Below, in pieces: positions 53,738 to 59,182 of a stretch of DNA of 64,000 nucleotides. The DNA is from Mustelus asterias (taxonomy: Eukaryota): positions 71,982,001-72,046,000 of the forward strand of contig NC_135801.1 of NCBI RefSeq assembly GCF_964213995.1, given 5' to 3'. A program made the position numbers and the translations under genes. The notes under the pieces are model-generated. The model saw only the letters and a list, made by a program, of their open reading frames with translations. It searched no databases and was not told where the DNA came from. The first letter of the stretch is position 1, and each line of letters begins with the position of its first letter.

Positions 53738-55199
53738 CATGTGCTAAAAGCAATTGTACGAGCTAATTCCTAGACCCTGTTTTTTCACGGTAAGTGGATG
53801 AGTTTCCCGAACTCGTCAGGTTGAACAAGGGGAGAGGACAATGTATAGATCAGGCTGAGCAAGTGGCAGGTTAGAAAGACTGTAAATACTAAAATATGTT
53901 CGCTGCCTCTTACCTGTGAAGACCTTGTTCTGGGAGTGCTTTCATTGCTTTGAAGGTGATTTCCAATGGGTTTAAGGTCATTCCTGTAAGGCAGGATTTT
54001 TTGTCCTTGATATGCACTTCCAGGTATCAATCCTCTCTGCAGTATGGGAGCTGCTTATGCAGCTTTACCTCGGATCTCACAAGAGGAATAGAATGAACAG
54101 CAGCAGTAGGAGCAGCCTATACCTCGACCACCTGCCATTCCATCGGACAGAGAGAATGAGCACAGAGCTCCAGCTTGATTGAAGAGGGGATATCCCCAAT
54201 GCAGGGTATCCAGTCAGAGGATTAGTGCCCTGGACATTAATGAGCAGCAATGCCTCACAGTTTCACTTCAGGTCATTGCTGTCTCCTCAAAGAAAACCTC
54301 CTTCCAAGTGGACCAGGCGGATAAACATTGCCAATGGCAGTCAGTCACCCCAGTCCTGATTTGTTTCACTTCCAACTCCTCCCAGTGATGTGTTGGTGAC
54401 ATTTATAGAATCTCACAGTCTGCTGCACACAAGTGCATCTCGCAGGTGACAAATGCCATGTCTTCCAGAGCTGCCACCTGTATCCATTGTGCACCTGATG
54501 AAGCCAGTCAGAAGAAGAGCACTCTTGGGTTTGCAGCTCTTGCTGGATTCCCACAGATACAGGCAATTATAAATTGCCTATATAAGGTAACCAATGCACC
54601 CTCAGATCAACCAGAAAGCTTCATCAACCTTCCACAGCATCAATATTCAGCTGGTCTGCAACTACTGAAAAATTATTATACATATCTATGCAAGAATGCA
54701 AGATATCAAGAAATCTGCCACGACGCCTTTATACTGCACCGGTCAAGTCTCCCACAGATATTCACATGTCCAAGTGGAGGGTTGCTTTGCAGTCAAGGGC
54801 TAACCTTTAGAGATGTGGTTGTTGGCACCTGTGAGGAAACTATCAGACCCAATAGAGGCATGTCCCATCCGTAACCTTTAAAACAAGAGCTGTAATTCGT
54901 TGGGGATATTCGGTAACTAACTTTCGTCTTAAAATTGATACTAGTGTGCTGCAAAAGATGGCTGACAAGGGGTCACCTAACTCTTGACCTGTGGTGTCCA
55001 AAAAGGTGTCACACTGGCTCTAAAGGATAAAGGGAGCTTCCTGATTAAAGACAAGTCAATGTACACATCCTGAGACCACCCAAACTGCATTCCTGACTTA
55101 AATGGGTCATTCTAGAATCCAGACAATGATTGTCTCAAACCCCAAGGTGGATGTCTGTACACAAAGACCCAGGTTGTGGTTAATTAACTTAAGCTCAAC

Positions 55200-55508
55200 T
55201 TCTCGGCCTCTTGGCTAAGATCAGGTGTAGTATCGACATGCTGCGCTTGGTTGAAGTCATTAGGTTACATTTTAGCTTCATTTGAAGCAATTTTTAAAAG
55301 CGGCATCTCGGCTTTTTGGCTAAGATGCAAATGAGATCAAGCCTTGGAGGAGGAGCTATGCCTACTCCAATCAGCTTGGATCATGTAGATCAAGCCCAAG
55401 ACAGGAGGTGAGAGCCCTGTCTTGTCAGCTTGGATCAGGAATGTCTCAACTTGTTGAGACTCTGAATTGGACTTGATTTGATTGAATTGGAATAAAAATA
55501 CACAAAAA
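55200..55508 (+). mobile_element. U2 snRNA-headed retroposon (SINEU-like)
   Basis: U2 nt 5-40 at 55199-55234 and U2 nt 7-27 at 55306-55326; 3' hairpin; A-rich tail; 11-bp TSD TTAAGCTCAAC. Confidence 0.8.
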
Positions 55509-55552
55509 TTAAGCTCAACACCAAATTTGTGAGGGAGCTATGAAGGACCACG

Positions 55553-55845
55553 TACACGGTGGCACAGTGGTTAGCACTGCTGCCTCACAGTGCCAGGGAC
55601 TCAGGTTCAATTCCCAGCTTGGGTCACTGTGTGGAGGCTGCATGTTCTCCTCGTGTCTGTGTGGGTTTCCTCCGGGTGCTCTGGTTTCCTCCCACAGTCC
55701 AACGATGTGTAGGTTAGGTGAATTGGCCATACTAAATTCTCTCTCAGTGTGCCCAAACTGGAGTGTGGCGACTATGGGATTTTCACAGTAAGTTCAGTGC
55801 AGTGTGAATGTAAGCCTACTTGTGACACTAATAAATAAACTTTAA
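55553..55845 (+). mobile_element. Alternative-tail V-SINE
   Basis: Head, V-domain and tail ending CTTGTGACACTAATAAATAAACTTT. Confidence 0.88.
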
Positions 55846-58696: not shown

Positions 58697-59182
58697 ATTG
58701 TTTCCAATGGTTGTTGACTTGGTTCCAAGGGGACACAATGTAAGATTAATCTTCGAAGCACAAACAGGAGCTTCGAAGAATTTTAATACTATTTGTTATT
58801 AAATATAATTGTTAGTGGAATATAGGCTTTTATGCTTTTTTTTACTGATAAGAACAGATTTTAAAATTTTTTTAATTTTTACTCCATCCTTAAAGTTACA
58901 AACCCACTGCTCAGGCAAACCCAAATCCATTCCTTCCTTGCTCCAAAAACAAAACTCAAAACCTAATTGAATCCAATTCAAGGTCCCCTCGAGAGAGACA
59001 AACAAGATCCAAGCTGACAGGATGAGGCATTGCACCCCATCTTGAGCTTGATCTAACACTTGATCTTAACCAAAAGGCTGTCAATTGTGGCATTTAAGAG
59101 GATTGGATAAAAACTATAATAATATTAAAATGCACAGGGAAAAGCAGGAAAGTGGGATTGTAATAGATAGATAACTCTCTCT

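Follow-up and report, generated by a model that had tools for sequence, protein, structure and literature searches.

A U2 snRNA-headed SINE-like retroposon family in the shark Mustelus asterias and a Keno-type LINE as its probable partner

In a 64,000-nucleotide stretch of the Mustelus asterias genome (the whole of it called the window below), a short unit carrying two pieces of U2 snRNA is bracketed by TSDs, which raises the question of what kind of element it is, what moves it and from where it is transcribed. A first-pass annotation had described it either as a mobilised, U2-headed, partly dimeric SINE or as a non-autonomous derivative of a U2-targeting LINE, and had distinguished it from an ordinary U2 pseudogene on the grounds that its body is non-U2.

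The element occupies 309 bp (55200–55508) on the plus strand between two 11-bp TSDs (55189–55199 and 55509–55519) that are identical at all 11 positions, and it is one member of a U2-headed, SINE-like retroposon family. Its first head (55199–55234) corresponds to U2 nt 5–40, with 34 of 36 positions identical to a U2 gene of the same genome in a by-eye comparison (L031) and an Rfam U2 hit of 45.9 bits (E 2.6e-7); the C at 55199 is common to the 5′ TSD, as its last base, and to U2 nt 5. All other Rfam matches between 54000 and 57000 were far under threshold. Behind this head lies an arm antisense to U2 nt 11–39 (55238–55266; fold z −5.29, equalled by 0 of 200 shuffles), which the first-pass annotation had overlooked, followed by a small hairpin that leads into AATTTTTAA (55275–55297), a non-canonical, Sm-site-like stretch containing a T5 run, for which a direct comparison with U2 was not significant (272 of 1000 shuffles). 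The second head (55303–55328) represents U2 nt 4–27 without the branch-point sequence and has a stem-loop I lengthened by additional pairs (z −3.6); within it, the previously annotated piece at 55306–55326 matches nt 7–27 of the genome's own U2 gene at 20 of 21 positions. Two tandem hairpin modules come next, the first (55331–55384) built as GATCAAGC-C-stem-loop-stem-TCA-GCTTGGATC and the second (55388–55436) present in one copy in a sister family as well, here called family B. None of 1000 shuffles was as good as the similarity between the two modules, and the recurring AGATCAAG proved to be the opening strand of both. A terminal hairpin with an AT-rich stretch (55443–55490), homologous to the post-module segment of family B that runs on into U2 Sm-site and stem-loop III sequence, and an A-rich tail (55491–55508) complete the element. 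The first-pass annotation had correctly placed the hairpin at 55443–55460, the AATAAA at 55492–55497 and the tail; AATAAA is restricted to a young subfamily, to which the present copy belongs, older subfamilies terminating in GGAAAAGTAT and an A-run. Immediately downstream, at 55555–55845 and from 55967 onward, the window holds two tRNA-type SINEs, 88–89% alike and of a common kind that has a B box; we take them to be of the shark HE1 type.

Searches of the 3.68-Gb genome confirmed that the element is not a single-copy chimera, since many dispersed copies with the same ends and different TSDs were found. A DNA search returned 2,538 first-look candidates, and the 40 places that were scored were 96–100% identical over almost the full length and spread over many contigs; a 34-nt core has 4,473 exact matches (reversed control 0), and a 31-mer of the young subfamily has 569. 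Clustering of 77 near-full copies resolved one young subfamily (31 copies, 97.9% identical to its consensus), which the search had favoured, alongside several older ones at about 96%. Exact TSDs of at least 8 bp flank 21 of 75 copies (60 loci), compared with 0.02% of 5,496 mismatched flank pairs, in a strict test that mismatched TSDs escape; a laxer count of 45 out of 75 was set aside, its control having been raised to 21% by the head sequence. Across the 3′ flanks of the 75 copies, no target consensus was found. Tandem arrangements are common, with 12 of 99 neighbour gaps at or below 1.1 kb against 0.15 expected. These shared 5′ ends, TSDs and copy numbers uphold the earlier description of a mobilised, U2-headed, partly dimeric SINE, and the element almost certainly belongs to a real mobile family. 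Public sequencing runs contain the stretch in 19 cases from 8 studies and 8 organisms, 17 of them with at least half of its words, and 6 organisms remain when the two best holders are set aside as possible sources; no RNA run occurs among the listed public holders.

The 5′ ends of the copies are informative about the template. Among 75 copies, 55 start at U2 nt 1–8 (12 at nt 1), 12 at nt 9–29, and 8 are truncated further; the copy in the window begins 4–5 nt short of the full family start at U2 nt 1. Exact matches from U2 +1 were obtained for 40 young copies. In 30 of these, the upstream DNA is unrelated, save for tandem copies and one duplicated locus, and a TSD abuts U2 +1 in 6 (control 0.7%) and lies 2–6 nt off in 4, with none detected in the other 20. 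Unrelated upstream DNA together with TSDs at +1 argues that the template RNA usually began at U2 +1. At one locus (L195:1440–1500), a foreign sequence is joined directly 5′ of a young copy; we take it to be the 3′ end of U6 snRNA, and U6–L1 template-switch chimeras have the same arrangement. First-look candidate counts were very large for U2 (135,653) and for U1 (60,609), and a U1-headed family may also exist.

Family B bears on the origin of the 3′ body. It returned 4,438 search candidates and is represented in the window by a copy on the minus strand (58843–59085), to which the 39 other full-length copies among 40 scored are 83–87% identical. The family is older and combines a single module with a U2 head from which the branch-point sequence is missing, and its 3′ half is homologous to U2 nt 70–170 including the Sm site and stem-loop III-derived sequence (0 of 1000 shuffles); in the window copy, an A-tail, U2 nt 38–53 and a second A-run follow. 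In organisation, family B is close to SINEU-3 as described. Our element aligns to family B over its last 50 nt (6 of 1000 shuffles), and since the 3′ half of that family is U2-derived, the body of the element is, on sequence comparison, probably in part remote U2, linked via family B. The contention that the body is non-U2 therefore stands for direct comparison, in which the 3′ hairpin was not significant (332 of 1000 shuffles), and gives way for these last 50 nt. The element is in any case no ordinary U2 pseudogene, being non-collinear with U2 and losing similarity to the U2 gene at nt 40.

The predicted RNA of the element is strongly folded relative to shuffles (z −5.69). The first head pairs with the 29-nt antisense arm (55238–55266) to form a 25-bp interrupted hairpin over the branch-point-recognition sequence. 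In 25 of the 77 copies, picked to span subfamilies, 98.2% of cells remain paired over 77 pairs while loops are variable, and the head-arm helix (23 pairs) is paired in 98.3% of cells. Two-sided changes affect just 2 of the 77 pairs, one of them in hairpin module 2, and 4 of 500 shuffles matched the covariation score, a value that related sequences can yield without selection. Three of the 77 copies (L077, L100 and L153) are hyper-mutated from A to G on the sense strand, with A>G to T>C ratios of 15:0, 13:1 and 10:0; the whole set has 102 A>G against 47 T>C, a modest excess of 64 against 46 remaining when these three copies are subtracted, compared with 63 against 78 in 63 copies of the neighbouring tRNA-type SINE. 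We infer that these copies reflect ADAR editing of a double-stranded RNA intermediate, and speculate that the fold-back may guard against dominant-negative U2 activity of the RNA. Alu elements are similarly structured and A-to-I edited dimers in which a short A/T-rich linker joins remodelled small-RNA pieces, differing from this SINE in their internal Pol III promoter and 7SL origin.

A candidate for the mobilising machinery emerged from the U2 genes themselves. The true U2 genes lie in arrays on one contig (C24), in units of 1,833 bp and 8,035 bp, the longer of which contains a two-ORF LINE. Its ORF1 has ZCCHC3-type RNA-binding domains and a zinc knuckle, its ORF2 an APE endonuclease, a reverse transcriptase (RT) and a zinc finger, and the closest solved structure is L1 ORF2p. 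The A-tail of the LINE adjoins U2 nt 38, the junction reported for Keno in the available text of PMC6136364; Utopia uses the same junction with a different nuclease, according to the portion of PMC4640811 consulted. One array (L067, G000:C24:44.81–44.94 Mb) has amplified the 8,035-bp unit about 16-fold, each unit comprising an intact U2 gene, a U2 fragment, the LINE and the 3′ part of U2, and the LINE there is split by a tRNA-type SINE and thus a disrupted LINE within a U2 array. Interruptions were present in all LINE copies examined closely, and no open ORF2 stretch longer than 1,144 aa was seen. At its head (L067:1545–1590), the LINE carries its own piece of U2 nt 5–35 with an antisense stretch that folds back (z −2.08), and a deleted variant (L071) has no fold-back (z −0.77). 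The family has at least 497 matches, and none of 30 sampled copies has U2 downstream, which indicates relaxed specificity; the strict U2-gene specificity expected of Keno was not seen here, hence our term Keno-type. Several off-target 3′ flanks (in L200–L229) start with ATCTG or ACTG, as does U2 nt 38–42, which suggests a residual target preference.

The SINE and this LINE are connected by site and by position. The first head of the family, U2 nt 1–39, is the sequence that flanks the site of Keno insertion on its 5′ side. Seven SINE 3′ junctions fall exactly on U2 nt 38 (control 0), out of at least 4,473 copies, and an eighth copy (L147) has a one-base deletion there. A family-like body occurs within 1.5 kb of Keno at 9 of 30 loci, against 0.1–0.25 expected, in the same orientation at 8 and as a diverged opposite-strand relative at the ninth; conversely, the 3′ part of Keno is found at 2 of 90 SINE loci. 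One locus (L230) is a Keno-TSD-SINE-TSD tandem with a SINE of the young subfamily, and another (L029) is a SINE-Keno-SINE run on a single TSD. Outside the U2 piece, the SINE body has no BLAST similarity to Keno (911 of 1000 shuffles score at least as well); its last 14 nt are identical to Keno at 13 positions, a tail similarity that is not significant, shuffles equalling it in 233 and 334 of 1000 trials. Recognition by Keno is thus probably via the A-tail or structure. The partner search proposed in the first-pass annotation, through 3′-end similarity to Tx1, Keno, L1 or Utopia elements, led to a Keno-type Tx1 LINE through the shared site and the tandems and not through the tail, whose match fails the shuffle control. 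We consider it highly likely that this LINE is the mobilising partner of the SINE.

Candidate source loci were found in a variant class of U2 gene that is about 90% identical to the main class, unchanged over nt 1–66 and arranged in short tandem units of about 440 bp. In one cluster (L143–L145 and L150; G000:C21:28.05–28.09 Mb), variant genes carry a paired change in stem-loop IV and, by eye, a 3′-box-like motif. Variant-U2 upstream DNA followed by U2 nt 1–39 occurs at 16 places, which continue into a SINE body in 9, into Keno in 3 and as intact genes in 4. The embedded SINE copies are seamless at nt 39, and 4 of the 9 lie behind a complete spacer, three with the remaining U2 downstream and one with U2 nt 38–58 and a Keno fragment. 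Loci with embedded copies map to G000 C1:80.33 Mb, C8:80.29 Mb, C14:62.23 Mb and C21:28.06 Mb. At least one SINE copy lies in a canonical U2 array, behind a Keno.

Three dispersed insertions, each with its own TSD of 13–18 bp, contain variant-U2 upstream DNA behind a U2 5′ fragment: L146 with 36 nt, L153 (duplicated as L154) with 14 nt and L155 with 93 nt, deriving from three different clusters. Such 5′ transduction indicates that U2-embedded copies were transcribed and retrotransposed; it shows transcription through the spacer and does not imply initiation at +1. In L107 and in the window copy of family B, U2 from nt 38 onward follows the tail, a pattern that RNAs extending into the 3′ flank could have left, as could an insertion into a U2 fragment. 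Upstream of the variant genes, the best match to the canonical U2 promoter stretch (13 of 22) lies in the right place, tied with an unrelated position, and neither U1 promoter stretches at the expected place nor an octamer were found. The first-pass annotation had proposed a search for a master copy under a U2 promoter: SINE copies do sit at 9 of the 16 variant-U2 places, none of them belonging to the young subfamily (0 of 16). Within the element, three T4/T5 runs in the first 120 nt argue against Pol III transcription, and no tRNA gene that would point to a tRNA origin was detected. Transcription of the SINE from U2 units is in our judgement reasonably likely.

Taken together, our favoured reading, held with some confidence, is of a U2-derived, non-autonomous, SINEU-like retroposon mobilised in trans by Keno and transcribed from U2 units that it entered. 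The SINE itself would lack a promoter. A small number of copies would enter the Keno site (U2 nt 38/39) in U2 genes, chiefly in the variant tandem unit, where the SINE head would seamlessly replace the first 39 nt of the gene, and such an embedded copy would be transcribed with the unit, by transcription either starting at U2 +1 or reading through from the preceding unit. The U2 promoter would drive this transcription, and the young subfamily would have used the same kind of source. The Keno ORF2 protein would then reverse-transcribe the RNA from its A-tail and, given relaxed specificity, nearly all products would insert at other sites, giving promoter-less copies whose TSDs vary, such as the one in the window. 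The RNA would be highly structured, with the U2 branch-point sequence concealed in the fold-back, perhaps for that purpose. As a further step, to which we give even chances, the SINE may renew its promoter by homing: its head is U2 nt 1–39, its partner would cut U2 genes there, and an on-target insert would become a source driven by an snRNA promoter, with the snRNA-like RNA under selection to mask or lose the branch-point sequence, like the Keno head and family B.

The best-surviving alternative, which we nevertheless regard as unlikely, is modelled on SINEU-2 and SVA: source copies would be transcribed from unrelated flanking Pol II promoters, U2 heads would be added or renewed when reverse transcription switches template to U2 snRNA, and embedded copies would be occasional sources only. 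Additional U2 or U6 5′ pieces before some copies (L012, L146, L153, L155 and L195) fit such a course, as do the repeated 5′ additions described for SINEU in the accessible part of Kojima 2015 (PMC4494074) and the fact that no young-subfamily copy was found in any U2 unit. Against this model, subfamily-specific changes in head nt 35–39 travel together with the body, the antisense arm is matched to the head, and variant-U2 upstream DNA is the sole 5′ extension found to be shared. Less probable still, at long odds, is a small set of U2-derived non-coding RNA genes that the host maintains for a cellular role, of which the dispersed copies would be Keno-made processed pseudogenes. Stems that are kept while loops are free to vary among subfamilies, and a U2 3′ half retained downstream of embedded copies, would agree with this; the many successive subfamilies, which differ between U2 units, and the position of the source copies, themselves A-tailed and at the Keno site, fit selfish turnover instead.

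An internally deleted, SIDE-like Keno, with its 5′ and 3′ ends joined, is very improbable. It is close to the LINE-derivative option of the first-pass annotation, which partly merges with the SINE option, the head being the U2 target flank that ends at the Keno site; derivation from the LINE by internal deletion did not hold. Keno, too, begins with U2 nt 5–35 folding onto an antisense stretch, and the 13 of 14 shared terminal nucleotides would be expected of it; yet the two fold-backs have different sequences and loops at different positions, the tail match fails to reach significance, and the lack of body similarity largely refutes an internally deleted version of the present Keno. An ordinary Pol III SINE with cryptic A and B boxes in U2-like sequence is the least probable of all, as loose B-box consensus matches within the hairpin modules stand against the early T4/T5 runs, two mismatches in the A-box match of the head and the failure to detect a tRNA gene.

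We return to the reading of a Keno-mobilised element transcribed from U2 units and compare it with known systems. In the available text of Kojima 2015 (PMC4494074), SINEU-1, -2 and -3 are described only in crocodilians, with none found elsewhere, their transcription is an open question, and their partner is Tx1-Mar, which targets a Mariner. Our element resembles them in a U1/U2 head (here U2-derived), a length below 500 bp, a poly(A)-type tail, TSDs or none, a structure shared by many copies, oligo-T runs without a convincing internal Pol III promoter, target use shared with a Tx1-clade LINE, repeated head addition and tandem insertions around one TSD; SINEU-3, as far as that text describes it, has an internally altered U2, as does family B. 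In the SINEU class features compared, the element agrees; it is classed by description and not by body homology to SINEU-1, -2 or -3. Unlike SINEU as described there, it has a Keno-site partner, re-enters U2 genes, has transduced U2-unit upstream DNA and pairs its head with an antisense arm.

The partner LINE shares with Keno, as far as the consulted sections of the source describe it, the 3′ junction in U2, the APE endonuclease, the RT and two ORFs, the name resting on junction and domains and not on an RT tree; it is mostly off-target here, unlike the U2-targeting Keno and Utopia. Those elements are autonomous, unlike the SINE, and the consulted sections of PMC4640811 and PMC6136364 do not mention a non-autonomous partner. 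R2 SIDEs and R2/R1 hybrid SIDEs, from what is accessible of Eickbush and Eickbush 2012 (PMC3414825), are short, non-autonomous elements that occupy their partner's site within a multicopy RNA gene, whose transcripts include them. They are like the SINE in depending on a multicopy RNA gene, and consist of LINE ends, self-excise by ribozyme and are confined to rDNA; the SINE, unlike them, is composed of pieces of the target RNA, retains the host 5′ end and has spread genome-wide. It has neither the 5′ and 3′ parts from a partner LINE that define SIDEs nor the A and B boxes without an early T4 terminator of classical Pol III SINEs. In the literature searched, which did not extend to subscription papers or Repbase Reports, we found no snRNA-headed SINE outside crocodilians, nor any description of the present family, which Repbase and Dfam may hold; the consulted parts of PMC7245038, PMC5786205 and PMC5499810 contain no other snRNA-headed family. 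New here are the probable partner LINE, the candidate source loci and the head-arm fold-back with hyper-edited copies, the SINEU-type mode being already known.

If our reading is true, snRNA-headed SINEs exist in a second vertebrate lineage, where they form at least two large families, and homing would supply a transcription mechanism for them. With candidate source loci, partner LINE and transduced promoter-side DNA in one genome, the transcription of SINEU-type elements becomes directly testable. In this system, a target-specific LINE has a parasite sharing its insertion site, and young polymorphic copies are possible phylogenetic markers. As a mobile RNA that contains spliceosomal sequence, the family also bears on how disturbance of splicing may be avoided.
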